DNA from: a virus
DNA: 64,000 nucleotides
Reading direction: 5' to 3' (one strand)
Virus record (IMG/VR): IMGVR_UViG_3300030042_000123
Span: 6,941 to 70,940 of that record
Shown: positions 10,491 to 56,207 of the stretch, one piece after another
How positions within the stretch are numbered: the first letter of the stretch is position 1
Layout: each line of letters starts with the position of its first letter
Position numbers and translations under genes: made by a program
The notes under the pieces: model-generated
Database searches by the model: none
The model's input: only the letters and a program-made list of their open reading frames with translations
Told to the model about the DNA's origin: nothing

Positions 10491-10526
10491 ATTATACCCT
10501 ATCGGGGCTCGAAAAGGATAGGAATC
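10491..10526 (-). promoter_or_regulatory. Class-1 phage promoter (copy 1)
   Basis: GATTCCTATC-N18-GGTATAAT on minus strand. Confidence 0.75.
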
Positions 10527-11501: not shown

Positions 11502-11537
11502 ATTATACCCAAAAATGGGTCAGAAACGATAGGAATT
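11502..11537 (-). promoter_or_regulatory. Class-1 phage promoter (copy 2)
   Basis: AATTCCTATC-N18-GGTATAAT. Confidence 0.8.
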
Positions 11538-12976: not shown

Positions 12977-15900
12977 TTATTCTCCAGAGACGGGGGTTTC
13001 CTTCATGGCGCGAGCCACGCTGAGTACCAAACCCTGCTTCGTCTTGGTGCCCCATGCCGTCTGCACACGATCTTTGTTCGACGGGTCACGTTTCAGGGAG
13101 CCCCACAGCATTTCGATCAGTGGGTGGTTCTCGTACTGATTCTGCACGTCGCGTTGGAGTCCGCCGTCGCCGGGTGCTGCCTGCTTCTCTTCGCTACCCT
13201 TACGCTTTGCGGGCGGCTTTGGCTGCTTGGCTTTAGCTGCGGGCTGATCGAGCACGCTCATGGCGGCATCGACCGCCGCGTTGGTGTCTTCCCACCAGAA
13301 CGGCTCGCTGAGCTTCTGATTGTCCTCATTGTAGACCTGAAGCTCCGCTCCGTCGCCGCCTTCTGTCGCTTGAATCCATAGACGGACGGTGCCCTTCATC
13401 GGAATGGCAGGGGCATAGGTGCCCTGTCCGCGAATCTCGGAGCCCACAAGGACATACGGACCCTGATACTGGTCGAACGCCTTGACTGTGCCGCCCAGTG
13501 CCTTCGCGATGGCGTGGTGCATCGGCCATGCTTCGGCGTCATCGGCTTCAGACTGGCTCATCTCGCCCGTGGCTTCCTTTTTATTCGGACCAAACGAATC
13601 GGCTTCCCGCTTGTGTTCTTTCCACTGTTCGAAATTCAGTTTGGTGTCGCCGTTGGCAACTTCATACTGCCAGTCTTTATGGTCAGTGTCCTCGGACGAA
13701 CTCGTTGGGCTGAACTTATCCGCTTCTTCTTTGTACATTTTCCAGTCCTCGAAATTAAGCTTCGTGTCGCCATTAGCGACCTCATACTGCCAGTCTTTGT
13801 AGTCGGTGTCCTCAGCGGAAGACTGAAGTGGAAGGTCCATCTGATTCGGATCAGGTTCGGCAGGCGGGGCAATCTCGCTGCCCTCGTCCATTTCGAACAG
13901 GTTGCCGCCGTACTGCAAGTTGACCTTGTTGCCATTCATCAGTTCTTCAACCATGTCCTCGATCTGGTAACGCTCGTGCCAGTAGACGTTACCGTCTTGG
14001 TCGCTCATGAGTTCGCCGGATGTCAGTGCTCCAATGTCCTCGGGGTTGACCATCTCCCAGCCATTGGTGAAGAAGTCCTCCATGAGTTCGAAGATATTCG
14101 GCTTGTTAATCATCTCGCCGATACCCTGCACATCGCTGAGCAGGTTGGCGGTGGGCTCCAGCGTGATGCCGTACTTGTTGTAGACGACCTTGACGTTGAA
14201 CCCCTCGTCTTCGCCAGACGTGGGCTGTTCAGTCGCCGCTACTTTGTCCTCGCTGCTGTGACGAGGTGGGATTCCCTCGTTAGCCAGATCGAGGTCTGAC
14301 TTTTCGGTGAGACCCAACTGTGCGGGGGTCTTGAGCTTGCCGCCGCGTTGCGGCATTGCGTTGATCTTGTCCGATGCGTCGGATGATTCATGTTCTTGCA
14401 TGTCCTTCTCCTCAGGATGATACCCGTAAAAGTCCATCCATTCCTTAATGTGTGGCTCATCGCCGCGACCCTTCGCCAGAGCCTCGTCAACCATCGACTG
14501 CATGTACGTCTGACCGTCCGTGGTCAATGGGTTCTCAAGGAAAATGTGGCAACCAGAGCAGTGCTCGGGTGCATCGGATTCTTCCTCGAAGAACGGCCCT
14601 TTCGGGTAGTTGTCCGAATCATACGAAGCCTCGTCCATCACGTTAGGCGGCGTCTTACCCTCCGCGTCCAGCGTGGCAGCAATTTCTGTCGCACACTTCT
14701 CGCACCACACGTCCGCTTGATAGATGTACGTGCCGTCGTTGGAACCACGGATACCACTGTTGGCACCCGGCTCGAACGCTTTCTTTTTCTTTCCAATTAC
14801 ACCAAGACCCCTCAGACGGGTTTTATCGGCTTCGCCGAACTCAGGTGTCTCAATGGGTACATCGGGCTGAGGTATAACTTCTTCGACACCAGCGGCTTCC
14901 AACAATTCCACATCGCCGGGATCAATGTAGTCGGCAAGGCCCTGTAATTCCATCAACTCTCCCTGACTGATCCGCTCGGCGCGGAGTTCGCCTCGGAGGT
15001 ATTCCAAACGACCCTGAATTTCCGATGTCTCCTCCTCATCAAGCCACGCTTTCTTCGCCGAACCAGTCTTGGCGCATGGAGCTTTCGAGGCTTCCTGCAT
15101 ACTCATACCGCAACGCTTGCAGTGACCATCGGTGTCAGTGTCCAGATCGTGAGTGCTGATGTTAGTCAAGCGTGCTCCGTCCGCTTCCTTCTCGATAGAA
15201 GCCTCAATCACGTTCTCTGCCTTCGTCGCCAGCGATGACGGGATGGGGAGGGTGGAAGACTCATGGAAATTTTCTTGGCAAGAGTCGTCGCCGTTGTCAA
15301 TCTGTTCGAGATCAAGATCGCCTTCGTCGCCCATGTGGTGACCTACGTCAACAACCGACCACGTGGCTCCGCACGGCCCACAAACAATCCACCACTGCCC
15401 GTGCTCAAAGTACGGATTGCAGTTCTCGTGAATCTCGGTCTCGGGGTGCGTCTGTGCCAACTGTGCTACGCGAGCTTCCATCTCTGGCGTGTTCTGTTCG
15501 GTCAGCAATCCCGCACTCACCTTGTTGGGCGTCTCAGTAACACCGCCGCTTGATCTCTCGGTATGACCCTGCTCGGTATAGTTCGGGTCGTCGCCGACAA
15601 TTTCACGCAGGGCGTTCTCCGCGTCTTCACGATAGTCGTCGATGTCGCTCAGCGAGCCGTCCTCTTCGCGGCGGAAAGCGTACTCAAAATCCATCATGAG
15701 CTTGGAGCAGGCGATGTACTTGTCTTCGCCCTTGCCCGTGCGGGTGTAACGCTCGTTGAACACGTCCGCCAGCCCGCCCTCCTTCTTGCCTTCCATGAAA
15801 TACTCGAAGGCATCTTCGAGAATGCTTGCTGTTTTGCTGGTCATGTGCCACTTCTTTCCGGGAAGTTCGGGTACAACTGTCTTCCGCATTGGTTTCTCGT

Positions 15901-18883
15901 CTTCGGTCGTTGGTTGCTGACCCGGCAGAGCAACGGCCGTTCCGGGTGGTGGAGCTACTACTGTCTGTGGTGCGGCGGCAGGTGCGGCGGGACGTGCTGC
16001 GGGAGCCGCTGCCGCTGGAGCCGCTGTCTTCCTCGCAATAGTCATCGATACAACCTTCTCGCCTTCCTTCATGTACTTTTTCACGGCACGTTCGGCAGAA
16101 CCGTAGTCCACACCTGAAACCTGCTGTTCACGTTGCTGACCCTTGGGATCACGCAGGAGGACTTTCCATTTACCCGCTACCTTCGGTCCCGCCGTGCCTG
16201 ATGGGTACAGCTTACCGAGTGTATCATTCCAAACCTTTTCCTTCTGCGGACAATCGATCTTGTGGTGATTCGTGACCGACCCGCAGCACTCTAACGTCTT
16301 CAATGATGTCGCAATCTTTGGAGGAGCCCCAGCCGAGCCGCCTTCTTGATAAAATTCTTCACGCCACAGATCGCCTGCTCCGCGCACATCGTCCGACCCG
16401 CCCCCACGCCCAGCGAGTTCCGCAGCCTCTTTCGATCCTTGCGTGCGTCCATGAGGCAGGCGTCCAGTGTCACCCGGCGTAATGCTGGGACGAATCGCAT
16501 CCTGATCGGCGTTCACGAAGTCGTGCCCGATCATGCCTTCTTTTTCAAAGCCGGGGTCAGTCCACTCCGCACCCTCAGTTTCAAACTCTTGAAGCGTCAA
16601 TTGCTGCCCATCGTCTTTCATGACGGGTTGAGGTGTGTGCCCCTTGGCATACGGGATCATCGCTTCGACCGTGGGCTGAGGCTTCGTTGTGTCCTCACCG
16701 AAAGCGTTTGGAATCTCTCCCCACTCGTACCACATCTCCGTATTGTAAACCCACATGTGCTCCGTGGTCTCATCCGTCACATAAATAAACCAGTCCTCGG
16801 CGAGCACAACGCGCAATCCGGGAGCCGCGTACTGAGGACCTGCCGCGATAGGCTTAAAGCCGCCCTCACTGGGAAGCTTTTGAAGGGTGGGCTGCTCTTC
16901 ACCGTCCGCTTTCTTCAGGGTCTCATCAATGGACTCGCCACGACGAGCTTCCATCTTCTTGATTTTATCGCCGTACTTGCTTGCGTTCTTGTTCTCGGGG
17001 CAATCACAGCCCTCGCAGATGCAGTTCTTTTTCAGTCTATCGCAACCATCGCAGTATGGCTCCTGTACAGAAGATAAAATCTTGACCGTATTGTCAGCAT
17101 CACCCGTGCCTTGTTCCAGACGGATGTACTCGATAGTCGCATCGGTGCATGGCTGGCAGTAGCGAGTCTTGTATCCGTAAATCTCAAGCATGTGAGCGGC
17201 GGGGTTCGGACATCCGCCCGCCTTGTGACCCAGCGGGCACTCTTCCCACTCACAGGAGCATCGACCGAGGTCAGCCGCCGTGTGTTTGGAATTGTAATTC
17301 CGCAGAGCTTGGAAAGCCGTATCGTAATTGCGCTTCGCCGCCTGCCACTCGGGGGTAGCTTTGGTAGCATCGGGCGTCATGCCCGTTGGCCCTTTGGGGA
17401 ACTTCTTGAGTTCCTTGCTGAAACGATCTACGTCCTGTTCCAGCTTCGTCTGTTCCTCATTGATCGGTCTGTCGGCGTGTCCGTAAGCAGCTTCCTTCGG
17501 ATCGTTGATACCCTTGACAATGCCGTGCTCCCAGTTCTTGCCGCACTTGTTGCACTTGGCGGTCTCGAAGTCCGTGGGCATCAAGCCGTAATCGTCAGAG
17601 CCGCAATGGGGGCACTTCGGCTTTTCCGCAGCCGTGCGACAGTTGGAGCAGGAGTTCACGTTGAAAGCAATCTTCGGAGCCGAGCAACGGCAGGTCTGAA
17701 CGCTACCACACTTGCACACTTGCTTGCGGTGGTGGTTCGAGGCCGTCTTATCGCCTCGTGTCTCACCGTCCAGCAAATCTGCTTTGTTCGGGCAATAGCA
17801 GCCGTTCTCATCGTTGCCGCATTGCGGACAATACTCGGATGCGATGCACCCAGCAGCCTTAAACTTGACCTTCTCGGACGAAGCCTTGGCGGGACGTGCC
17901 TTCGCCTTTGGCGGCGGTGGGAACATGTGTTGCAACAGGTCCGCAAGCTGGTAGGAGTTGCCCAGTTGAGTCTTGTTCTCGTAAACGAAGTCGCGGAGCA
18001 AGCCGCCGATCTTGTCTCGGTACTGCTTCAGGGAATCGAAGCTCAAACCTGTGCGGTGAATCCACTCTTGAGTCAGGTCGCTGATCTTAACGTCGCCACT
18101 CTCGGTTTGCTGAGCTTGATCCCAGTAAATCTTGAGCAGGGCGGCGTAATTGGGGGCGGACTTCGGAGTCTCCTTGGTCTTCACCCACGCTTCGAACTTC
18201 TCGATAAACTGATTGATGTCGCGGTCGGACTCGGACTGACCGACGCCCGGGGTTGTAGCGTGCTCTTCGGTGTCGAGGATGTTGTAGGTCTCGCCCTCTT
18301 CTCCGGGTTGTTCCATGCTCATCTCTTCGGGGCGAATCAAAGCAATCGCGTCCTGCTTCGCGTGATCCTTGGCGTAGTAAATGAACGTGCTCTTGAGGTA
18401 GGAACTGACCTGCTCAGCGATGGGCTTCTTCTGGGTTTCCTTGTCGAAGCCTTTGACCTTCTCGGCAAAGTTTTCCAGCAGCTTCTTGCCGTTCTTCTGC
18501 GTCCGCTCGAACAGAAGGGAGACGACCGCTCGGTAGATCACCTCATCCTGAATGTCTTGGTCTTGGGTTACGGAGTTGAGAATCGACGAGTAGATTTTGG
18601 TGAGGTACTTCGCCCAGTCCATCTTGGGGTCAGTGGGTAACCCCGCCTGCTCGATGAGCGAGTTGACAATCGCGGTCAGGTCTTTGTTGAAGGCAAACTT
18701 CAGGAGGGACGCGAAATGCATCCAAGCCCCGGCAATCGGGGAGAAGTTTGCGGGGGTTGAACACGGTCGCCCCTGAAGGTCGGCCAATTTGAAGGCACAC
18801 TCTCCCGCTATTTTCAGCGTAGACGAAATGCGGTAGGCTTTTCCATCAACACCGTACACGATTTGTCCTGCGTTAAGGCGCAC
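12977..18883 (-). CDS. 1968-aa modular polyprotein (putative virion cargo) with K-X-A linkers, many Cys-rich modules and a sigma-like N-terminal module
   Basis: Single long ORF with GTG start and GAGG RBS; short unrelated modules separated by KTA/KEA/KVA/KIA/KKA/KQA. Confidence 0.75.
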   Translation of the reverse strand: MRLNAGQIVYGVDGKAYRISSTLKIAGECAFKLADLQGRPCSTPANFSPIAGAWMHFASLLKFAFNKDLTAIVNSLIEQAGLPTDPKMDWAKYLTKIYSSILNSVTQDQDIQDEVIYRAVVSLLFERTQKNGKKLLENFAEKVKGFDKETQKKPIAEQVSSYLKSTFIYYAKDHAKQDAIALIRPEEMSMEQPGEEGETYNILDTEEHATTPGVGQSESDRDINQFIEKFEAWVKTKETPKSAPNYAALLKIYWDQAQQTESGDVKISDLTQEWIHRTGLSFDSLKQYRDKIGGLLRDFVYENKTQLGNSYQLADLLQHMFPPPPKAKARPAKASSEKVKFKAAGCIASEYCPQCGNDENGCYCPNKADLLDGETRGDKTASNHHRKQVCKCGSVQTCRCSAPKIAFNVNSCSNCRTAAEKPKCPHCGSDDYGLMPTDFETAKCNKCGKNWEHGIVKGINDPKEAAYGHADRPINEEQTKLEQDVDRFSKELKKFPKGPTGMTPDATKATPEWQAAKRNYDTAFQALRNYNSKHTAADLGRCSCEWEECPLGHKAGGCPNPAAHMLEIYGYKTRYCQPCTDATIEYIRLEQGTGDADNTVKILSSVQEPYCDGCDRLKKNCICEGCDCPENKNASKYGDKIKKMEARRGESIDETLKKADGEEQPTLQKLPSEGGFKPIAAGPQYAAPGLRVVLAEDWFIYVTDETTEHMWVYNTEMWYEWGEIPNAFGEDTTKPQPTVEAMIPYAKGHTPQPVMKDDGQQLTLQEFETEGAEWTDPGFEKEGMIGHDFVNADQDAIRPSITPGDTGRLPHGRTQGSKEAAELAGRGGGSDDVRGAGDLWREEFYQEGGSAGAPPKIATSLKTLECCGSVTNHHKIDCPQKEKVWNDTLGKLYPSGTAGPKVAGKWKVLLRDPKGQQREQQVSGVDYGSAERAVKKYMKEGEKVVSMTIARKTAAPAAAAPAARPAAPAAAPQTVVAPPPGTAVALPGQQPTTEDEKPMRKTVVPELPGKKWHMTSKTASILEDAFEYFMEGKKEGGLADVFNERYTRTGKGEDKYIACSKLMMDFEYAFRREEDGSLSDIDDYREDAENALREIVGDDPNYTEQGHTERSSGGVTETPNKVSAGLLTEQNTPEMEARVAQLAQTHPETEIHENCNPYFEHGQWWIVCGPCGATWSVVDVGHHMGDEGDLDLEQIDNGDDSCQENFHESSTLPIPSSLATKAENVIEASIEKEADGARLTNISTHDLDTDTDGHCKRCGMSMQEASKAPCAKTGSAKKAWLDEEETSEIQGRLEYLRGELRAERISQGELMELQGLADYIDPGDVELLEAAGVEEVIPQPDVPIETPEFGEADKTRLRGLGVIGKKKKAFEPGANSGIRGSNDGTYIYQADVWCEKCATEIAATLDAEGKTPPNVMDEASYDSDNYPKGPFFEEESDAPEHCSGCHIFLENPLTTDGQTYMQSMVDEALAKGRGDEPHIKEWMDFYGYHPEEKDMQEHESSDASDKINAMPQRGGKLKTPAQLGLTEKSDLDLANEGIPPRHSSEDKVAATEQPTSGEDEGFNVKVVYNKYGITLEPTANLLSDVQGIGEMINKPNIFELMEDFFTNGWEMVNPEDIGALTSGELMSDQDGNVYWHERYQIEDMVEELMNGNKVNLQYGGNLFEMDEGSEIAPPAEPDPNQMDLPLQSSAEDTDYKDWQYEVANGDTKLNFEDWKMYKEEADKFSPTSSSEDTDHKDWQYEVANGDTKLNFEQWKEHKREADSFGPNKKEATGEMSQSEADDAEAWPMHHAIAKALGGTVKAFDQYQGPYVLVGSEIRGQGTYAPAIPMKGTVRLWIQATEGGDGAELQVYNEDNQKLSEPFWWEDTNAAVDAAMSVLDQPAAKAKQPKPPAKRKGSEEKQAAPGDGGLQRDVQNQYENHPLIEMLWGSLKRDPSNKDRVQTAWGTKTKQGLVLSVARAMKETPVSGE
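13590..13815 (-). repeat. Tandem 120-nt (40-aa) repeat inside the polyprotein
   Basis: EDTDYKDWQYEVANGDTKLNFEDWK... / EDTDHKDWQYEVANGDTKLNFEQWK... Confidence 0.9.
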
Positions 18884-19484
18884 AGTTCACCTCTCGCCGA
18901 CCCTTGTTCCAAGGGACTCTACCTTGAGCAGCCGACTTCATTTTCTGTATCGTGCTTTCGGAGTGCCTTCTGTCTTTGAACCTAGTACCGAGGTTTGCTA
19001 TTAGCTGCTCTTTTGAAGTTACACAGGGCATTTCACTAAGGGTTTTGCTGATCTTATCGCAAACATCTTGGGGAACAGTGCGCCCAAACATCGACTTGCT
19101 AATCTTGTCACGAACAGCTTGGGGGATGGGCTTTCTGTACTGGTGATGGTTTACCCCGCTCATCTTCCGACGAGTCTCTTCATTGGGGATTAACCCGTCA
19201 CCCCCCATCGTCAGGTTATAGCCGTTCTCAGGTTTATGGGATTGATGCAGGATAATGAAGAAGGTCTCCATTTTACGGAGTTCTTCCTTGGTCTTGGCTT
19301 GGTGCAAGACCTCGACGGTAAAAGCCTCTGCACCGTACTTGCGGATGGCGTTGTGAAAGTAGAATGGACTACCCCTGCGGGCTCTGTACCGATGCTCTTT
19401 CCACCGACGATTAACGCTGGAGCCTTCCCACTTGCCGATGTAGACCTTGCCGTTGACCGTATTTGTAATGCGGTAAACAAGCAT
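18873..19484 (-). CDS. GIY-YIG homing endonuclease with NUMOD3-like repeats
   Basis: LVYRITNTVNGKVYIG, FHNAIRKYG, GYNLTMGGDG, HSESTIQKM. Confidence 0.88.
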   Translation of the reverse strand: MLVYRITNTVNGKVYIGKWEGSSVNRRWKEHRYRARRGSPFYFHNAIRKYGAEAFTVEVLHQAKTKEELRKMETFFIILHQSHKPENGYNLTMGGDGLIPNEETRRKMSGVNHHQYRKPIPQAVRDKISKSMFGRTVPQDVCDKISKTLSEMPCVTSKEQLIANLGTRFKDRRHSESTIQKMKSAAQGRVPWNKGRREVNCAP

Positions 19485-19828: not shown

Positions 19829-21673
19829 TTAAACGCTAAACATTACAACAGGCACGACTGGCTCTCCCCCGAACGAGAATGGCGTAATCGTGCCCAGAGT
19901 GGTGGGCATAACCCCACCGCCTGTGATTGCATTTGCGGCTGAACCAAATCGGACGGGTGGGACTGGAGACGAGTACGGAAACGACCATTGATTCAGGAGG
20001 TTCGCCATCGAAGAGGAATCCTGATGGCTGAACACGGAACCGCCGTTTGAGGCATCGTAACTCCCCCACGCGAACCAGTAAATTCCCGAAGGGAGAGTGA
20101 CAGGCCCAACCGCAACCTGTTTAGTCCATTGGCTGTGATTTGACGTGTCGAGAAAATTTGCTCCCGCGTCAATCAGTTTCGTATTTCCATCCGCTGAGTA
20201 GAGAGCACACGTCATCCAACCGCCAGCACCCGAACCTGTGACCGTGGTAGCCGTGACGTGGGATATGACAAACTCAACTTCGAGAATGACTTGGATTACA
20301 TTCACGACATTGTTAGTGAGAATGCTTCCGCTAGTCCCAACTGTGCTATAGTCCTGACCGCCAAGAAACCAACCCAGTCCTGCTGTCTGGAACTTTGACC
20401 CACCACCTGCCGCCGTTTCCCACGCGGGTACACCTGCAACCACCGTCAATACTTGACCAGAAGTACCGATTGGTAGTCGCTCGGGGCCGAGCACGGCTGG
20501 GGAACCAGTCAAGCCCTCGTAGATCATATCCCCAACGGTGGTCATGGGGTTTGCAAAACCTGAACTCGGAACCGTAGCAACGAATTCAGTTCCGTTGAAA
20601 GTAAGGACAGCCCCAGTCGGTATTCCTGATGGTGGGGCGGTGATGGTGGTAGCAGTATTCATGGTAACGGCGGCGTTGGCTAGTGCCCGGCCTGCCAACG
20701 ACCCACCGCCCAATGTAATCGACGAGACAGCGAGAATGTTACCCACAGTAACAGCACCCGGACCAATCGTTGTCCATGAGCTTCCAACGACCCAAACTAC
20801 GTTAGCAGCTTGAGCACCATTGGCTAGTGTGATCGTTCCAGCAATAGCCTGAGTGATTGTCGAAGCGGTCGCGTAGAATACGAACACAGCGTTCGGACTG
20901 CCCTGTGCATCAAGAATGATTGGTGTGCTGATTGCAAGGCTCGATCCACTCTTATAATTGCCCGCATAGTAGGTGCCAGTCGGAGCACCCGCTGAATGCT
21001 GGGTGCCCATGTCTGCTGTAGTGAGTGTCTGGATGAAGGTCAAACCTTCGTAATGAGTGATTGCCGTGTTGAGGTCCGTCAAGGCTTGAGATGCGACAGG
21101 CGAGATAACTGTCGTAGGCGGTGTCAAAGTCCATGGCGGGGTGCCTGCGGTGATGGTTGTGCCTCCGACATTTCCACCGCTGATGACCGTGCCCGCACCA
21201 TCCGAGTTCGTGACCGTGGTTCCCAGTACGGCGTAAGTTGCTGCCGTAGCTAATTGCGTGGTGACGGGAGACGAAGGGCCTGAGGGAAGGGACACATCGG
21301 ACAACGAAGCCAAAGTCGTAGTAGCCCAAGCTCCGTTATTAAAAATGTAAAGCGCGTTTCCGCTGCCCACAGCCCAACCATTTTTCGGTGTGTAGTATTC
21401 CCATTCACCGCTTGGAACCGCTGGATTGTCGGTTGACCAGTAGGCGAGATTGTTAGCTTGAGCCGACCACACACCCGTAGGACTGCTTCCAATGATGTAG
21501 GAGTCTCCGTTGGCGGGGGACACGGGCGGTGTGTTCAACCCGACGCTGATAACGTTCGACTCAACGAGTGCCTGAAGCCCGCGCAGCAACGCTTCGCCTG
21601 CGGTGTAATAGCCGTCACCGAGGGCTGCGCTAACGAATAACTGCGGAATTTTGGGGCCGAAGTGGATGCTCAT
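19829..21673 (-). CDS. Tail-fibre-like protein: DUF2793-like N-terminus + DUF3494 ice-binding-like domain
   Basis: N-term TPPVSPANGDSYIIGSSPTGVWSAQANNLAYW...PKNGW (DUF2793-like); DUF3494 at about 20640-21256; LPIGTSGQVLTVVAGVPAWE fibre segment. Confidence 0.8.
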   Translation of the reverse strand: MSIHFGPKIPQLFVSAALGDGYYTAGEALLRGLQALVESNVISVGLNTPPVSPANGDSYIIGSSPTGVWSAQANNLAYWSTDNPAVPSGEWEYYTPKNGWAVGSGNALYIFNNGAWATTTLASLSDVSLPSGPSSPVTTQLATAATYAVLGTTVTNSDGAGTVISGGNVGGTTITAGTPPWTLTPPTTVISPVASQALTDLNTAITHYEGLTFIQTLTTADMGTQHSAGAPTGTYYAGNYKSGSSLAISTPIILDAQGSPNAVFVFYATASTITQAIAGTITLANGAQAANVVWVVGSSWTTIGPGAVTVGNILAVSSITLGGGSLAGRALANAAVTMNTATTITAPPSGIPTGAVLTFNGTEFVATVPSSGFANPMTTVGDMIYEGLTGSPAVLGPERLPIGTSGQVLTVVAGVPAWETAAGGGSKFQTAGLGWFLGGQDYSTVGTSGSILTNNVVNVIQVILEVEFVISHVTATTVTGSGAGGWMTCALYSADGNTKLIDAGANFLDTSNHSQWTKQVAVGPVTLPSGIYWFAWGSYDASNGGSVFSHQDSSSMANLLNQWSFPYSSPVPPVRFGSAANAITGGGVMPTTLGTITPFSFGGEPVVPVVMFSV

Positions 21674-23490: not shown

Positions 23491-23829
23491 TCAGTAGCCT
23501 AGCACGGAGTCATATCCCTCTCCGTAAAACACTATCTTCAAACGACTTAGACCGTCCCCGATGTAACCCAGTGAGATGAGGTTACGGACGACCCTCATTT
23601 TAACCAGCTTCCTGAACTCGGAAACTGTTTGATTGTCCTTCAGGCGATTGCAGTATTCGCAGGCGGGCAGGAGGTTCCACTCGGCGTTCGGTCCACCTCG
23701 GCTGGCGGGCTTTGCATGGTCTACGGTGAGGTCACAAAGCTCGGCGGGAGCGTAACCACAGTACCAGCACCGCCCATCGCACTTGCGAACGGTCCTCCAC
23801 CACTGGGTTTTGCGGGGCGTGCGGGGCAT
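23491..23829 (-). CDS. HNH endonuclease
   Basis: CWYCG...LTVDHAKPASRGGPNAEWNLLPACEYCNRLK. Confidence 0.9.
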   Translation of the reverse strand: MPRTPRKTQWWRTVRKCDGRCWYCGYAPAELCDLTVDHAKPASRGGPNAEWNLLPACEYCNRLKDNQTVSEFRKLVKMRVVRNLISLGYIGDGLSRLKIVFYGEGYDSVLGY

Positions 23830-24814: not shown

Positions 24815-25774
24815 TTAGTTCTCGCCGTAGTTGGCGGTCGCGTTGAAGCGGCCATTGACTGTGAGACGCTGGACACCTGATGGGTTGAACACCAAGAAGC
24901 CCAAGTTCTCGAAGATGCTGAAACCGATCTGACGGAGGTCAGGACGGTCGGCAGACATCACGGTCAACGGAATACGTTCTGGGATTACGCCGAGGAACTC
25001 AGCGTCCGCCAGAATGTAGATGCAGCCGTAGCCGACCTTACGAGACTGGAGGAGCGTTGCGCCCCAGAGATAGCCCATGACGCCCGTCTTCAACAGCTTG
25101 CGCTGTGTTTCACGGTCGATGTTTTGCTGCGTCCACTTCAACAGGTCCGTGTAGTCACGCGGATTGAAGAAGATGAAAGCAACCGACAGATCGTGGCGTG
25201 CAACCTGACCAAAGCCGTCTGCCAACGAGTTGATGTCGATGGGAGCGTTGATGGCGATGTCGGGGTTGTAAACCGGATCGTTGGGTGGGTGGCCGACTGC
25301 GCCTGCCGCAACACCGTCAAACAGGTTGAACACGTAACCATCTTCCGCTGCGCCTACTTCAGCCTTTGCGAGGTTGAGTGAACGAGCGACGAGATCGAAA
25401 CGACGTTCCTTGATCTGCGTGATCGGAATCATCGGGTTGGACACGATTTCAAACGTCGGAACCGTGACGCGCTTTGGCTTGGTGACGCGCACGATGTCGC
25501 CGCCTTCTTCACCTACCACAAAGGCCTCAACGAAGGACGAGCCCGGGGTGGAACCCACGGTCATCGCGCTTACATCAAATTCCTTATCGTAGATGGGCAG
25601 AGCGCCATCGGGAAGAGTTTCAACCATAAGAGCCTTGCGAGCAATGCTCATATAGTCACGACGACGACGGAGGGACGGTCCCAACGAAGCCGCAAGTTTC
25701 TGACGACCACCCGCAGTCTTGAGCAACTGTCCGAGCATAGCCGTCTGCTGTTGTGTACGAGAAAGGTTTGCCAT
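24815..25774 (-). CDS. Major capsid protein (probable HK97 fold)
   Basis: Start ATG 25774 with AAGGAG RBS; QKLAASL...DYMSIARKALMVETLPDGALPIYDKE, IPITQIKERRFDLVAR, AAEDGYVF; follows scaffold/protease/decoration genes and precedes a strong terminator. Confidence 0.8.
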   Translation of the reverse strand: MANLSRTQQQTAMLGQLLKTAGGRQKLAASLGPSLRRRRDYMSIARKALMVETLPDGALPIYDKEFDVSAMTVGSTPGSSFVEAFVVGEEGGDIVRVTKPKRVTVPTFEIVSNPMIPITQIKERRFDLVARSLNLAKAEVGAAEDGYVFNLFDGVAAGAVGHPPNDPVYNPDIAINAPIDINSLADGFGQVARHDLSVAFIFFNPRDYTDLLKWTQQNIDRETQRKLLKTGVMGYLWGATLLQSRKVGYGCIYILADAEFLGVIPERIPLTVMSADRPDLRQIGFSIFENLGFLVFNPSGVQRLTVNGRFNATANYGEN

Positions 25775-25791
25775 GTTGTTCTTTTTCTCCT

Positions 25792-26361
25792 TTACAGTAA
25801 CGACGCTACGCCGAGCCAAGCTTCGGTCGTGGTTGGAACGTGGGTGCAAATACCGACAGCGGGCGAAGCAGCGTGGCTGCGTGCCGCCGAGGTGTACTGT
25901 CCGATGTTCGCGGAAGTGGCGCAGCCACAATACAGATACGCACCGAGTGTGAACGCTGCGCTCGTATCATAGCAATTTCCGTCCGAGTTACCCACCATTC
26001 CCTGCCACATGGCACGGACAACGGGGGCTTTCTTGGAACCGGAAGGCCCAATAGCGCCAGCGAATTCGCCGCCGTTGTTGAGCAGAGTTGCGAAGGGAGT
26101 GCCAGCGTTTCCAGACCCATAGTAAGTCGCGTCCGTGTCGCATGGAGCGATGTTACCGATTTGTCCGAAAGCAGGTTGGTTGGGAGGTTGAATCGGGTAT
26201 GCAGCGTTCGTGCTTGCACCAAGAATGGCTACAATCACGCCGCCGACGTATCCGCCAGCCTTCAACGTCTGTTGGTCAGTTCCCGGATCGCCAGTGAGGA
26301 ATACCGCTGGGGTGCAGTTAACGGAATCGTTCTGACCCAGATAGTGTAATTTCACACTCAT
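25792..26361 (-). CDS. Putative head decoration protein
   Basis: Start ATG 26361 (GGAG RBS); small Gly-rich beta protein directly upstream of the capsid gene, ends LGVASLL. Confidence 0.6.
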   Translation of the reverse strand: MSVKLHYLGQNDSVNCTPAVFLTGDPGTDQQTLKAGGYVGGVIVAILGASTNAAYPIQPPNQPAFGQIGNIAPCDTDATYYGSGNAGTPFATLLNNGGEFAGAIGPSGSKKAPVVRAMWQGMVGNSDGNCYDTSAAFTLGAYLYCGCATSANIGQYTSAARSHAASPAVGICTHVPTTTEAWLGVASLL

Positions 26362-38945: not shown

Positions 38946-41900
38946 TTATGATAGTTGGGTTTGAACAATGAACGTGACCGACACATACAAGAGACAGAAC
39001 ATCGGCTTGAAGGTGACGGTAACGTCGGCCTGTGTCGGATCGGTCGGGTCTTGCACAACCGACAAGTTCTGGTAACCGCTGATGATCTGCTGGTTAACCA
39101 AGGACGACAGGCGGGCGTTGCAGACCACCTGAATGTCGGTAACAAGCGAGTCGAGCAGCTTGCGACCGATGAACTGGTTGAGGTCGGAACGGAACACCTG
39201 CGAAACGTAGTCCGAGATCGTGGTGACTGTCGGCTCGCTGGTGAGCGGGTTCGACGGGTCAGTGGTCTTGTAGTGACGGATGAGCAGGGCACCGTTGTTG
39301 TTCAACAGGTCCGTCAAGCCATCTGACGCCATCGCGTCCAGCGTTGGGTCGTCGTAAACCACGAGCAAGCGGCTGAAGCCGACCAAGTTCTGGAACGTGA
39401 GGGACTGTGCCACATCGTTCGATGGGTTTGCGTTCAAGCCCATCATGGCGGCTGCCATGAATTCGCCACTTACCGCGTATTCCACCGCCACACCCGTGTT
39501 CGGGTCGGTGATGAGGATACCTGCGACTGGGGCACCGATTGCGATCATACGCTGATTCAACAGACCGCGAGCGTTTGCACGCATCGTGCTTGGCGTCTGG
39601 AACTGATCGTAGCCGACGAAGCCGATTGCCTCGCCCTTGTAGCGAATGTTCGCCATGGTGGTCAACTGACGGCTCAAGAACTGGTGAACAGTCGGGTCAG
39701 TGCTCAGCGGGCAGATGATGTTTGCTTTCTGGTTGGTGCCCGGGAGGTTCATGGTGAGCGTCTGGATTGCGTTCATGAAGTCCTGCGAAGTTCCCTGATT
39801 GGTGCCGGGAACCACTGGGACTTGGATGACGCCGAAGGTCTGCACGCCGTTCGCGGCCATCAACTGGATGCCGAGAGAGACGCGGTTGACCGTGTTCGGA
39901 GTACCGTAGATGGCGTAAGCAACCTTTGGGTCGGTGTAAAGATGAATCGCGTAATCAGCCGCAGTCTTCGCGGTCGTGTACGAGACGTAGTAGAACTCAC
40001 CGATGCTCGGGTCGTTGCCGCTCTTGTTGAACGTGCTGATAATCACGGAGTCGCCAGCGGTCGAACCGAAGTTCGAGATGACCGTGGTGTCGAGACCCTG
40101 AATTGCGATCAGGTTGTTCGCCTGTGCTGGGGCAATGCCGGGTGTACCAGCGTTGCGGACGGCAGCGTTTGCGCCTGTTGCGTCAGCGTACACGTTGAAG
40201 ATGAGTTTGTCGCCGGGTTCGAAGTTGTAAGCTGATGGAATGTTCGGCACACCGTAACCTGCGTGGTCGGTGGGATTGACAACCGTCACACGGAACCCAG
40301 TTGCAAGGTCCTCATAGGTCTGGTCGAGGTAGCCGATGTTGTTCAGCGAGCCCGAACCCTTCGAGTTGGGCGAAGAGACCGTATAGCTGTGCGTGACGGG
40401 GGAGGTGATTGCGTTGGTGCCGCCAGACAAATTCGTAGCGCCCGTGATTGCGGCGTTGCCTGAGGTCGTACCAGACGCGGTGCAAAGAATCTGCCCACCA
40501 TCAATCGTTTCGCCCGATGGGAACAAAGCTGCAATCGCGGCGAGGGACAGGGGCGTGCCAGCCCAGCTTGAGTAGATGGTAACGATGTCACCATTGATCG
40601 ATACTGGGTCGGCATTCAGGTCCGTAGCGTCAATCACGATTTGGACGAGGTTGCCGCCGATACCCGGGGTGGTCGCATGGAACGTCAGCGTGCCGGGACC
40701 GAACGACAGTGCCAGACTTGCTTGAACAGCGGGAACGATAGTCGCGTTGCCGTCGTTCTTGAAGGTCAGGGTAACTGTTTCATCAACCGCTGCACCTGCC
40801 TGAGCCTGTGCATCGGAGAAGTCGTTCGGGTAAACCACGCCCGTGTCTTGGAACGGCCCATTCTGAGCAACAGTGCTGGCGGCTAGGTTAAATTCCACAA
40901 GCGGAGCAACGCGGTCAAGCTCATCGGTGATGATGAACGTACCGTTGCCCGCGTATCCCGGGTTGACAACCGTGACGCTATACTGATGGTCAGCCAACTG
41001 GCTGCGGTAGTACGAAGCGTACACGTTGCTGCCCGACGCTGGGGGATTGTACAGGGTCACAAGCTGGTTTGCACCAGAGAGAGTAGCCACACGTACAGCG
41101 CCCGCAAGGAAAGCTTCCAGCGGATCGGAGCCGACGTAAACCTGAACCAACGCAGGATTGTCGGTCGTGACGCTGAGTCCGCTACCATCCACTGGTACAT
41201 CGGGGAGGGTGAAGACCGTGTTCTTGCCGTTTACAGCGCCCGCGAGCGGACGGAGATAAACTTGATCGTCCCTCAGTGCGGTGGTGATCTCAGCGGCGGT
41301 GAAGTTCGCGGATTCGCCAGCGGCGGATTGACCGATAGCCGAGGATACCGAGGCACCCCAGTTGATGGTCTGGACTGTGGAGCCATCGGGAGCAAGGATG
41401 CTGCCGAGAACGTAGTCCGTCCCCTGAACAAAGTCCGCACGATTCGGGCCGAGACCGACCTGAGTGATGGAGGAAATGTTCTGACCGGGAAGCAGATCAT
41501 ACGTGTTCTGCCACGAGTTGAAGTAATATTGGATCGTGAAGGACGTGGTAGTTCCGCCCAACGCGACTGGCGCGGAGACGGGCGAAGCCAGCGTGAAGGT
41601 CCCCGCCGCACCATTCAAGGATGCGACTGCGACGTTGTTGCCGTTCACCTGAACGATGACCTTGGTTACGTCGGTCGTGACCACGCCGCCGTTGGTCCCA
41701 TCTACGATGGGGGTGTGGGCGGTTTTGAATACTGTGTTGCTGTTGCCGCCAACGCCGCCCGTGAATGGCGTTGCACCTGCGCTCACCGTCAGCGGAGCAG
41801 TGAGGTTGCCCGTGGTCGTTGTGACCGTCAGGTAGCCGCCGTCGAGCGTCGGAATACCTGCGTTGACGAGGCTGACGAGACTGGCAAGGGTACGGGTGCC

Positions 41901-42611
41901 GCTCGGTCCATTGATGTTGATCGTGATGGCATCGGTGCCTGCACCACCAACCGCCTGAGCGTCTGGGACAGGCGAGGGGCTGGAAACGAACTGGAGGGTA
42001 ACGAGGTTACCTGTCTGGCCGGGGGTCGAGAGACCCAACACAACCGTCTGGTTTCCCGGAGGCGAGCCGCCGCCGTCAAGCACAGTCAGAGTTGCCGTGC
42101 TCGGAATCTGTGGCAGAAGATTTTCTGGGACATTGTACGGAGCCACACCACCGATGCCGATGAACGTGTCACCGCGCTTGAAGAAGTAAGTGATGAGGAT
42201 TTCGTAGCCCGTGGGGATGATGAGTTGCGTTGTGAACGTACCCGTTGCGCCGTTCAGTGAAATCACTGTTACGGGAACGATGTTACCGTTCTGGTCAATC
42301 GACTCAACCTGAACGTCGGCGGGGTTGTTCGAAATCACGCCCTTGCCAGTACCGTCCGTGACCGGGAAAAAGCTGGTCTGGAATGTGCGGGTCAACCCTG
42401 TGACTTGGTTCGAAATGTTCTCGCTGACCGACTGGTCATCCTGAACTGAGGAGGAACCACGGAACAACTCAACGTTGTTGTTGCTGAAAAACTGTTGACC
42501 TTCACCGATAATCACGGGAATACGGGCAGTCCCCAGCGTAGGAGCCGCGTTGGTTTGCAGAACTACTTGAGTGTAGACGCCCGGTGGTGCGTAGGATGTG
42601 AACAGTGCCAT
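38946..42611 (-). CDS. Tail sheath protein (large, with inserted domains)
   Basis: YAPPGVYTQV N-terminus; C-terminal sheath signature (G...L.....A.LIRHYKTT, DYVSQ.FR..L..FIG, V.QDPTDPTQADVTVTFKP...LLYVSVTF). Confidence 0.9.
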   Translation of the reverse strand: MALFTSYAPPGVYTQVVLQTNAAPTLGTARIPVIIGEGQQFFSNNNVELFRGSSSVQDDQSVSENISNQVTGLTRTFQTSFFPVTDGTGKGVISNNPADVQVESIDQNGNIVPVTVISLNGATGTFTTQLIIPTGYEILITYFFKRGDTFIGIGGVAPYNVPENLLPQIPSTATLTVLDGGGSPPGNQTVVLGLSTPGQTGNLVTLQFVSSPSPVPDAQAVGGAGTDAITININGPSGTRTLASLVSLVNAGIPTLDGGYLTVTTTTGNLTAPLTVSAGATPFTGGVGGNSNTVFKTAHTPIVDGTNGGVVTTDVTKVIVQVNGNNVAVASLNGAAGTFTLASPVSAPVALGGTTTSFTIQYYFNSWQNTYDLLPGQNISSITQVGLGPNRADFVQGTDYVLGSILAPDGSTVQTINWGASVSSAIGQSAAGESANFTAAEITTALRDDQVYLRPLAGAVNGKNTVFTLPDVPVDGSGLSVTTDNPALVQVYVGSDPLEAFLAGAVRVATLSGANQLVTLYNPPASGSNVYASYYRSQLADHQYSVTVVNPGYAGNGTFIITDELDRVAPLVEFNLAASTVAQNGPFQDTGVVYPNDFSDAQAQAGAAVDETVTLTFKNDGNATIVPAVQASLALSFGPGTLTFHATTPGIGGNLVQIVIDATDLNADPVSINGDIVTIYSSWAGTPLSLAAIAALFPSGETIDGGQILCTASGTTSGNAAITGATNLSGGTNAITSPVTHSYTVSSPNSKGSGSLNNIGYLDQTYEDLATGFRVTVVNPTDHAGYGVPNIPSAYNFEPGDKLIFNVYADATGANAAVRNAGTPGIAPAQANNLIAIQGLDTTVISNFGSTAGDSVIISTFNKSGNDPSIGEFYYVSYTTAKTAADYAIHLYTDPKVAYAIYGTPNTVNRVSLGIQLMAANGVQTFGVIQVPVVPGTNQGTSQDFMNAIQTLTMNLPGTNQKANIICPLSTDPTVHQFLSRQLTTMANIRYKGEAIGFVGYDQFQTPSTMRANARGLLNQRMIAIGAPVAGILITDPNTGVAVEYAVSGEFMAAAMMGLNANPSNDVAQSLTFQNLVGFSRLLVVYDDPTLDAMASDGLTDLLNNNGALLIRHYKTTDPSNPLTSEPTVTTISDYVSQVFRSDLNQFIGRKLLDSLVTDIQVVCNARLSSLVNQQIISGYQNLSVVQDPTDPTQADVTVTFKPMFCLLYVSVTFIVQTQLS

Positions 42612-53050: not shown

Positions 53051-53092
53051 GAGGCTATTCTACCTCATGGCTCACGAATTCAGCTAGGAATT
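53042..53092 (-). promoter_or_regulatory. Class-1 promoter (copy 3) with its -10 in the loop of a perfect 13-bp inverted repeat
   Basis: AATTCCTAGC-N18-GGTAGAAT-N6-ATG; GTGAGCCATGAGG-N8-CCTCATGGCTCAC (53042-53075). Confidence 0.8.
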
Positions 53093-53112: not shown

Positions 53113-54549
53113 TTATGCGTACACTTCCAACGGCACTTCCGCAAGCTGCCGAATTTCAGGGAATTTCTGGAACCGCAGGACCTCGCCGTTCAGGTACGCT
53201 GGTTCAAGAATGTCAAACGGGTAGCCCATCTTGCCGTCACCCCTGTACTGCATGGAGTGATAGCCGCCCTGCTGGTCGTCCAGAAGGGCCTGCCGCCCGC
53301 GCTTCGATGCCTTGCCGGGATCGGTGATCGGGTCTTTCCAGATTTCAATCTGCTGACCGTTGATGACAGCGTTGCAGCACTTGATTGCAACCTTCTGCGT
53401 ATCTCGGTTCAATTTCTGGAGCAGCCCACCACCCATACCAAACACGATGTTGGCTGCGGACCACTTGGCGTCCTTCATTGCCTGCAAAATCTTGCGGATG
53501 CCGTAGTGGTCGATGCCGTCGCCCCAGAGGACGCCGACGCAAGGCGGAAGCAGCTTGTAGCCGTTGCTCGTCTCGCGGATGCCGAACTTCTCGCCCAGAA
53601 TTTCCAGCACGCGAAGAGTGATCGCTACTGGATCACCGGAGTCGGGACGGACCACAACCTTGCCGTTACGGTTGCGGATGCGTTCGCGATACGTGCCGCC
53701 GATGATGTTGGCAGTGAAGTTGAAAATGTCGTAGGAATCGCCAACGAGGGAGAGAATACCCGTGGGCACTTCATCCAGTGCGTTCTCGACAAACTTTGAT
53801 TCGTACTCACGGCCCCACATAGTGGTGACGGAGTGCTCAGACGCGAATACGGAGTAACCCGGCATTTCGCCGCCGAACTTCCCGAATCCGTAGAACTGCT
53901 CGATGTAGTCAATTCCGGGCAGTGTGTCCGTGCCTTGGAAGTTGACAAGGTGAGCCGCAGCACCGATACCCATTTGCTCGACGCAAGTGACGCCGCGACC
54001 GCCGAAATCGTGAAGCTGATACGGCAACGTGGAGAAATCATCAGCCGTCTCCGCGAGGAACTCAGCGAGGATTTGCTTGGTATAGCGAGACCGCGTGACG
54101 ACAGCCGAGGGATACCACACGTGCTCCAGAATTGTTTCCGTCCAGCCCGGAACCCACGCACATTGATCGCAGGTGTTCTTCATCGTCCACATGACGTTCT
54201 TCACGGGGATCGGGAGACCTTCCTTGACCGCACGGATGTCCAGCGGTAGGTAGCCGCCATGTGCGTTGATGACGTGCCGCCAGCCTTCCTTGTTGAAGGC
54301 GCGGTCGTTCATGAAGTGCAGGCCCGCTTTGTACTCCGCTTCCTCAACATCAGTCAGCGTAGCGAACTTGCCCTCGATGTTGCGGATCATGTTGCCCTGC
54401 AAATCGAACAGGACGGTGTACGGGTACTCGCCGCCGCGAGCCTCATAGTAATACAGCATTTCCGTGGTGCCCGGAACGATGAACCGCCAGTGACCGACCT
54501 TGTAGCTGTCAGTCTTATGTAGTGGACGCGGTTTGAATGGACGTGGCAT
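53113..54549 (-). CDS. nadV: Nicotinamide phosphoribosyltransferase
   Basis: KTDSYKVGH, LHDFGGRG, HLVNFQGTDT, SEHSVTT, SLVGDSYD, VRPDSGDP, GDGI, FGMGGGLLQKLNRDT, KASKRGR. Confidence 0.95.
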   Translation of the reverse strand: MPRPFKPRPLHKTDSYKVGHWRFIVPGTTEMLYYYEARGGEYPYTVLFDLQGNMIRNIEGKFATLTDVEEAEYKAGLHFMNDRAFNKEGWRHVINAHGGYLPLDIRAVKEGLPIPVKNVMWTMKNTCDQCAWVPGWTETILEHVWYPSAVVTRSRYTKQILAEFLAETADDFSTLPYQLHDFGGRGVTCVEQMGIGAAAHLVNFQGTDTLPGIDYIEQFYGFGKFGGEMPGYSVFASEHSVTTMWGREYESKFVENALDEVPTGILSLVGDSYDIFNFTANIIGGTYRERIRNRNGKVVVRPDSGDPVAITLRVLEILGEKFGIRETSNGYKLLPPCVGVLWGDGIDHYGIRKILQAMKDAKWSAANIVFGMGGGLLQKLNRDTQKVAIKCCNAVINGQQIEIWKDPITDPGKASKRGRQALLDDQQGGYHSMQYRGDGKMGYPFDILEPAYLNGEVLRFQKFPEIRQLAEVPLEVYA

Positions 54550-56171: not shown

Positions 56172-56207
56172 ATTCTACCTAGTGTACACTGATTTCGGCT
56201 AGGAATC
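56172..56207 (-). promoter_or_regulatory. Class-1 phage promoter (copy 4), heading the NAD-salvage operon
   Basis: GATTCCTAGC-N18-GGTAGAAT. Confidence 0.8.

Follow-up and report, generated by a model that had tools for sequence, protein, structure and literature searches.

A conserved module with a tentative likeness to sigma factors heads a mosaic protein from the late genes of a jumbo phage from soil

Introduction

Phages without a polymerase of their own are thought to begin transcription on sigma-70 promoters of the host, with phage-encoded sigma factors produced only later. Transcription tools delivered by the virion are known as well: the virion RNA polymerases of N4 and phiKZ, and the modifying enzyme Alt of T4. 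For the Acidobacteriota, hardly any phage biology is known to us. Here we describe a window of 64,000 nucleotides (positions 6,941 to 70,940 of the IMG/VR virus record IMGVR_UViG_3300030042_000123; coordinates below refer to the window) and, within it, the conserved N-terminal module of a giant late protein, which may be a sigma-like unit that binds RNA polymerase.

The module is encoded by a giant mosaic open reading frame (ORF; 12977..18883, minus strand; 1968 aa, GTG start) that forms the end of the late structural block. Behind the N-terminal module follow zinc-ribbon-like modules rich in Cys, and acidic ones. Polyvalent proteins of phages and conjugative elements (Iyer et al. 2017, PMC5512222) and MuF-type polymorphic toxins are likewise giant mosaics of unrelated modules encoded next to virion genes. 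One trait of polyvalent or cargo proteins, a mosaic of shuffled modules in one polypeptide among late virion genes, is found here too. By analogy, the giant protein would be processed, delivered with the DNA and act early on the host. It differs from the polyvalent proteins in that it has no embedded peptidase domain, so that processing would need a separate head protease, and Pfam finds none of the catalogued polyvalent domains. The word "sigma" is absent from the survey of polyvalent proteins (PMC5512222), and a sigma-like module would therefore be new to that class.

A first-pass annotation of the window had drawn attention to residues 65-343 of the giant protein (17855..18691, minus strand). 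It proposed, from similarity judged by eye, a sigma70-family factor that is cut out by the head protease, packaged and injected, and it knew of no characterised example. Our literature search agrees on the last point, having found no report of a virion-packaged sigma factor.

Results

The N-terminal module is conserved as one unit

A full HMMER search with aa 1-345 over 1.84 billion representatives (clusters at 50% identity) returned 121 proteins at E<=0.001, and 35 also pass the stricter bound of E<=1e-30. The family profile, built from 57 of the 121, covers positions 2-340 in almost every member, and the module begins within the first 30 residues of the protein. In about 115 of 130 members, the profile match starts at position 2-5; in a few, the first 60 residues are missing or the N-terminus is extended. 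Member proteins are approximately 360 to 2136 aa long, with the module nearly always at the N-terminus and the downstream modules shuffled. Locus L054 (unpublished genome G030) was excluded from all alignments.

The interval 17855..18691 translates to aa 65-343, and all motifs quoted for it by the first-pass annotation are present. It is no chance pattern: it lies within the conserved, folded module, but it omits an N-terminal beta domain. Of its two boundaries, KAA|G344 falls on a junction motif of the family, whereas KFA|64 sits inside a conserved helix, predicted at aa 52-65, and most relatives do not keep its K-x-A spacing (they read KFVLA or KFVFA). Because of the position and poor conservation of KFA|64, and because the profile match begins at positions 2-5, we take the unit to be aa 1-344 (17852..18883, minus strand) rather than 65-343. 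Judged by family conservation and the predicted fold, aa 1-344 is one autonomous, conserved module.

AlphaFold2, run on the 57-sequence alignment, gives a model with a mean predicted local distance difference test score (pLDDT) of 86.8 and a predicted template modelling (TM) score of 0.67. A run from the single sequence was unusable (pLDDT 47). The model begins with a small three-stranded, Tudor/SH3/KOW-like beta-barrel (aa 1-50, 18734..18883; this and the following parts are all on the minus strand). The first helical domain, which resembles sigma region 2 (aa 67-183, 18335..18685), contains the DxxDEAIH helix (109-126), an insertion of 17-28 aa and the long QVTxFL...F..R helix (155-183). W90, the only invariant residue of the family, is located in this domain. 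A conserved acidic linker, EE.SMEQP.EEGE.YNILDTEEHAT (aa 184-215, 18239..18334), follows. Its residues S189, N201, L203, D204, E207 and H208 are kept in 39-53 of the 57 sequences, and it is modelled as a beta hairpin at pLDDT 58-75. The linker leads to a helix-turn-helix (HTH) domain of four to five helices (aa 216-320, 17924..18238), in which the most conserved motif of the family, W..TGLSFDSLK, forms the turn and the recognition helix. The module closes with a basic tail (PPPPKAKARPAKASS) and the junction motif KFKAA|G (aa 321-344, 17852..17923), a likely processing site.

Sequence searches of Pfam, PHROG and the PDB gave no relevant match for the module; phmmer and the family profile retrieved only chance matches to fructose bisphosphatase from the PDB sequences. 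A Pfam match to TAF1_subA (E 1.6e-4) was judged spurious, as it occurs in 4 of 57 members and its 21.6 bits lie below the cut-off of 31.8. A profile search of a 5.8-billion-protein set found no sequences bridging the module to sigma families. We regard the module with confidence as a new multi-domain fold family; this stands even if the sigma reading fails.

The only homologue in a cultured phage is gp345 of Tunturiibacter phage Tunturi_5 (PP885688.1), a protein of 667 aa with the module at aa 25-385 (E 7e-50). Its label "virion structural protein" is computational, since the Tunturi_5 paper gives no virion proteomics. The gene is located after the tail-fibre genes, as in the window, and the order tail fibre, then module gene also occurs in a 340-kb soil contig, so that it is conserved in three phages. 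A stand-alone form of 365 aa also exists; its gene follows Prim-Pol genes in last place, next to a resolvase, at one edge of an integrated element and outside structural modules. Such small elements (loci L028, 241-2116, and L029, 2292-8270) carry a Prim-Pol gene, and the module gene that closes them lies next to a serine recombinase where bacterial housekeeping genes begin. With the stand-alone form as query, a single match was obtained in bacterial chromosomes: a decayed, truncated copy in an Acidobacteriota metagenome-assembled genome (OY969886.1; locus L032, 5463-9020), directly downstream of IS21 (IstA/IstB) and next to host genes. This copy links the family to the Acidobacteriota as host phylum. 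An alignment of close relatives against representative bacterial genomes did not find the module.

Resemblance to sigma factors

Foldseek searches with the model returned no match at E<=0.001 in the PDB or BFVD. Sigma factors recur in four weak fold-search lists, where they make up 4 of the 15 top AFDB clusters and 5 of the 30 top Swiss-Prot matches. The VIA-align lists contain SigL, SigB, SigS, SigI, sigmaA, the phage sigma 9m7y_F, ShbA, sigmaE region 2 and SigD region 4. Full-length sigmas align to model residues ~70-320 in domain order, and single-domain sigmas fall on the corresponding domain. A feature search of the ESM Atlas gave no usable match, and a shape search of the Atlas returned only RapA, UvrD and chromo proteins, all through the small barrel and all at TM <0.3.

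A further signal comes from profile-profile alignment. Sigma profiles were built from the E. coli sigmas, the canonical ECF-like (extracytoplasmic function) sigma of Tunturi_5 and Acidobacteriota ECF sigmas. In hhalign, a 7-sequence profile was negative (P 0.11-0.27). For the whole module and for the first helical domain, a 19-sequence profile gave P 0.0063 and 0.0026, and a 45-sequence profile 0.015 and 0.007, respectively. Eight controls with reversed profiles scored P 0.19-0.47. The CarD profile gave no signal (P 0.5-0.7), and therefore not every polymerase-related profile scores. The alignment, identical with the 19- and 45-sequence profiles, places aa 92-204 helix for helix on regions 2.1-2.4. 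Helix 90-102 corresponds to region 2.1 and "D..DEAIH..I...L..R..L..F" to region 2.2; past a 17-residue insertion, "QVT.FL...F..R" corresponds to regions 2.3/2.4 and "E.SMEQP" to the start of the linker. Corrected for the variants tried, the region-2 signal is roughly 0.02-0.04, a value that is suggestive and falls short of conclusive.

With a profile of group 1-3 sigmas, the acidic linker aligns on region 3.2 ("sl..pigde...L.d.i.d") and the next helix on 4.1. The region 3.2-like linker of the first-pass annotation is co-linear with its sigma counterpart, but at P 0.16 the match is non-significant. The same holds for the HTH, which aligns on region 4.2 at P 0.27. A search for homologues of RpoE found near-identical orthologues only, and the Tunturi_5 sigma as query gave one short viral match.

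Several observations weigh against a sigma factor. The Foldseek E-values are 0.02-0.35, and the hhalign probability is 3-11% and does not rise with the larger sigma profile. The query protein does not match Pfam PF04542 (region 2) at E<=1; the match of one of the 57 members to Sigma70_r2, at E 0.084, is no better than noise. The module matches none of the sigma, CarD and HTH families of Pfam, and region 4 (PF04545 / PF08281) has no Pfam match and hhalign P of 0.06-0.3. An insertion of 17-28 aa stands where sigma factors have a short loop, and the aromatics with which sigma recognises the -10 element are not conserved in the family. The complete genome of Tunturi_5 encodes no polymerase and has one ordinary ECF-like sigma alongside gp345. 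Finally, a conserved N-terminal domain with variable cargo is also typical of a capsid-targeting domain. The sigma70-family assignment of the first-pass annotation therefore survives only in part: the signal over regions 2.1-2.4 and the sigma-like architecture speak for it, whereas a Pfam signature and profile support for region 4 are absent. Several independent signals, each below the usual bar, point to a sigma-2-like polymerase-binding module, which they neither confirm nor dismiss. Generic helical repeats, ORC, Fur and TFIIB score equally in the fold searches, and the region-2 superpositions are poor (root-mean-square deviation 6-8 A).

Predicted docking to RNA polymerase

The module was docked to residues 1-400 of the E. 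coli beta' subunit (RpoC). The score was 0.43 (runs 0.38, 0.43 and 0.45), three controls all scored 0.00, and the tool graded the result as "weak support". The runs share at least 51% of their contacts, and the partner pLDDT is at least 63. In the calibration, 58 of 80 solved complexes and 2 of 110 mismatched pairs passed the mark; with scores of up to 0.60, only 7 of the 80 solved complexes did so, and both of the passing mismatches. These counts hold only roughly here, because the alignment was user-supplied and E. coli beta' stands in for that of the host. The pass may also reflect likeness to solved sigma complexes. Taken with the profile alignments, the docking suggests that the module may be related to sigma factors and may bind RNA polymerase, on weak statistics and a weak prediction.

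The docking result would also suit a polymerase binder that is not a sigma factor. Such a protein could be an open-complex stabiliser of the CarD/RbpA type, or it could mimic sigma and occupy the site of the host factor so as to shut off host transcription, with no promoter recognition of its own; this would also agree with the -10 recognition aromatics not being conserved. The fold searches produce matches through the barrel to CarD (three entries), RapA (three) and Mfd (two), and the Tudor domains of RapA, Mfd and UvrD are among the best small-domain matches. Foldseek aligns the Tudor-like and helical domains over full-length CarD (16% identity, E 0.28-0.30) and matches a CarD-like AFDB cluster (E 0.048, probability 0.69). 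The distance from W90 to the barrel is about that of the DNA-wedging Trp of CarD, and hhalign aligns the two residues with each other on its best path, which is non-significant. On the other side, hhalign against CarD and RID profiles together gives P 0.05-0.7, and the barrel resembles eukaryotic Tudor domains, EF-P and ribosomal proteins to the same degree. The strongly conserved recognition helix of the HTH suggests a sequence-specific contact to DNA. We consider a non-sigma binder of this kind quite improbable.

Shuffled modules behind a conserved junction

The remainder of the giant protein is variable. Downstream modules occur in different orders among relatives, and the internal modules aa 1017-1105 and 1386-1486 are conserved better than the N-terminal module in distant relatives. 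Pfam finds no domains in the cargo parts of six long relatives. The protein contains 22 K-x-A sites against 13.6 expected (p=0.01), and 10 of 42 clusters of homology breakpoints lie within 4 aa of such a site, with 3.8 expected (p=0.003). The giant protein has the appearance of interchangeable cassettes arranged in a row. Homology blocks begin or end at the K-x-A sites at aa 818, 856, 1017, 1367, 1547, 1769 and 1900.

The module itself ends at a sharply conserved junction. The motif [SGA]-[LFI]-x-hydrophobic-A after a basic "KA.PAKAS" is found in 44 of 91 family proteins; 2.0 are expected from other windows of the same proteins, for a pattern that was defined post hoc. Distant relatives read ...PAKASSLKVA|D, ...SSLHLA|D and ...ASLNLA|A at this point. 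K342-A-A344 coincides with the motif, and the BLAST segment of one relative begins at aa 341. A gene for a head maturation protease is present in the window (32299..33255, minus strand; phrog_18299, E 6.3e-15, no Pfam match) and is the candidate enzyme for the proposed processing. Given the conserved junction motif and this gene, release of the module at KAA|G344 is plausible.

The major head protein (24815-25930, minus strand) has two K-x-A sites (LLKTA|G, QKLA|A) within about 30 residues of its likely true start, MANLSRTQ. Its sequence is compatible with a short propeptide that is cut at the same motif.

It is possible that the module serves to bring the cargo into the prohead, or to bind packaged DNA or the portal, in the manner of MuF/SPP1 gp7-type domains or the P1 Dar proteins. 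As such a targeting or "pilot" module, it would use its Tudor and HTH parts for protein and DNA binding inside the capsid, and the likeness to sigma would be generic helical similarity. The conserved N-terminus in front of shuffled, unrelated modules fits this explanation, as do the junction motif directly past the module and the position of the gene, always last after the tail-fibre genes in the late operon. It would further agree with sigma signals that are all below conventional significance and with the canonical sigma already encoded by Tunturi_5. Yet the cargo-free 365-aa copies adjoin replication genes and a resolvase instead of a structural module, and neither a BFVD match at E<=0.001 nor a PHROG family was obtained. 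Capsid targeting also leaves unexplained why hhalign responds to sigma profiles above the reversed and CarD controls, and why docking scores above its controls. We regard it as rather unlikely, and as the strongest competitor to a sigma-like module.

The giant protein could also stay out of the virion. It would then be a large cytoplasmic late protein, a scaffold for assembly or host takeover, with a DNA-binding regulator of transcription or replication at its N-terminus, and the K-x-A sites would reflect linker composition. Packaging is a presumed step, the K-x-A enrichment is modest and four of the sites lie inside folded domains of the module. The best matches of the HTH domain are DNA binders of the Fur, DnaD and TFIIB types. 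This explanation is at odds with the coincidence of homology breakpoints and K-x-A sites, with a junction motif kept across distant relatives, and with a position at the end of the structural operon that is kept in three phages, together with the head protease gene. We consider it very improbable.

Promoters, polymerase and sigma genes in the phage clade

A promoter-like motif, TTCCTAKC-N20-TAKAAT, occurs 5 times in the window with 0 expected. The copies, in the form TTCCTAKC-N18-GG-TAKAAT, are located at 10491-10524, 11502-11535, 53057-53090, 56172-56205 and 63868-63901, all on the minus strand. The entire record contains 7 copies, two sister records contain 8 and 13, and two distant relatives, Tunturi_5 among them, contain none. 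The distance from TTCCTA to the -10 element exceeds the standard spacing of sigma-70 promoters. Some phage factor must read this motif; no evidence links it to the module protein.

Searches of the contig of the window, in six frames for region 2, turned up neither a canonical sigma region 2 or 4 nor an RpoB-type domain. Among sister and related contigs that are 26-71% complete, five were searched for sigma region 2 and three for RpoB, with no match. A promoter motif specific to the phage clade, next to the absence of polymerase and recognisable sigma genes from these contigs, counts in favour of the sigma reading.

The locus and its neighbours

The source contig measures 120 kb, and CheckV estimates its completeness at 36%; the phage is therefore a jumbo phage. 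Megablast of phage records gave no match.

The conserved upstream neighbour of the module gene is a DUF2793 / ice-binding-like tail-fibre gene (19829..21673, minus strand). In the window, a GIY-YIG/NUMOD3 homing endonuclease gene (18873..19484, minus strand; PF01541 at 2.4e-7, PF07460 at 2.9e-8) is inserted between it and the giant ORF, overlapping the ORF start by 11 nt. The proteins of relatives have about 15 additional N-terminal residues, which the insertion seems to have replaced here. A second homing-endonuclease gene of the structural block, of the HNH type, is found at 23491-23829 (minus strand).

The tail sheath gene (38946-42611, minus strand) encodes 1221 aa, of which the sheath profile matches aa 871-1217 only, leaving the first 870 residues uncovered. 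In a UvrD-type helicase (56179-59118, minus strand), the N- and C-terminal halves are separated by about 340 aa with a weak match to intein splicing (E 2e-4), and the gene probably hosts an intein. A nicotinamide phosphoribosyltransferase (E 7e-140) is encoded at 53113-54549 (minus strand).

Discussion

We tentatively read the N-terminal module as a sigma-like polymerase-binding unit on a virion cargo protein, a possibility that we place somewhat below an even chance. In this mechanism, the module stands at the front of the mosaic cargo protein, whose gene comes last in the late structural operon. The head maturation protease would probably cut K-x-A type junctions and thereby release the module at KAA|G344. 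If it enters the virion and leaves it together with the DNA, the module would act on the host polymerase ahead of phage gene expression. Its docking site would be the beta' clamp, as for sigma region 2, and its HTH domain would contact DNA or the beta flap. It could serve as a specificity factor for phage promoters or compete with the host sigma. Packaging, cleavage and injection are inferred steps of this scheme. A fuller version, in which a sigma-like factor is cut free by the head protease at a conserved junction of the S-L-x-hydrophobic-A type, packaged and ejected, and lets host RNA polymerase read the TTCCTAKC-N20-TAKAAT promoters from the start of infection, seems to us unlikely.

If the sigma reading is true, the module would be the first sigma-like factor carried in a phage particle, and a third route by which phages seize transcription at time zero. 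A virion sigma would then serve a large group of jumbo phages from soil (Acidobacteriota) that lack a polymerase. A function would also be assigned to a protein family of soil jumbo phages that is extensive and unannotated, with at least 121 clusters at 50% identity. Whatever the outcome for sigma, the sharply conserved junction motif makes the processing of the cargo polyprotein directly testable in the cultured Tunturi_5.

Among known families, the barrel has its closest counterparts in CarD, the RID of Mfd, the C-terminus of UvrD and the N-terminus of RapA, which likewise possess a small Tudor-like beta-barrel of about 50 aa. As in the module, a helical domain follows the barrel in CarD, with a conserved Trp approximately 85-90 residues from the N-terminus. 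The module shares no sequence or profile similarity with these domains (no Pfam match to PF02559, CarD_TRCF_RID; hhalign P 0.05-0.23 against an Acidobacteriota CarD/Mfd RID profile), and its barrel matches unrelated Tudor/KOW domains equally.

For the helical part, the comparison is with the ECF (group 4) sigma-70 factors, including the Tunturi_5 sigma and 9m7y chain F. In these, too, an acidic linker connects two helical domains, and the second one has an HTH at its end. The likeness extends to a DxxQE-like "D..DEAIH" helix, a loop and a long helix with a T-aromatic-L pattern. It also comprises the weak profile similarity over regions 2.1-2.4, structural matches that are weak and follow the order of the domains, and a docking to beta' for which the prediction is weak. 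The module differs in having no Pfam signature and no region-4 profile signal, and in its extra N-terminal Tudor-like barrel and the 17-28 aa insertion between the 2.2-like and 2.3-like helices. Its linker motif NILDTEEHA is strongly conserved, while ECF linkers vary. Moreover, about 1600 aa of cargo follow the module in the same polypeptide, which is encoded in a late structural operon.

Tunturi_5 gp345 is the only relative in a cultured phage. Like the window protein, it has the full module, followed by "SLHLA|D", in a position after the tail fibre. It differs in its downstream sequence, and its genome lacks TTCCTAKC-N20-TAKAAT and has a canonical sigma.

The proposed logic is that of the virion RNA polymerases of N4 and phiKZ and of T4 Alt: a protein packaged in the head is ejected with the DNA and redirects early transcription. 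Those proteins are polymerases or an ADP-ribosyltransferase. Here, the available sequence contains no polymerase gene, and the cargo would be a specificity factor that binds the polymerase.

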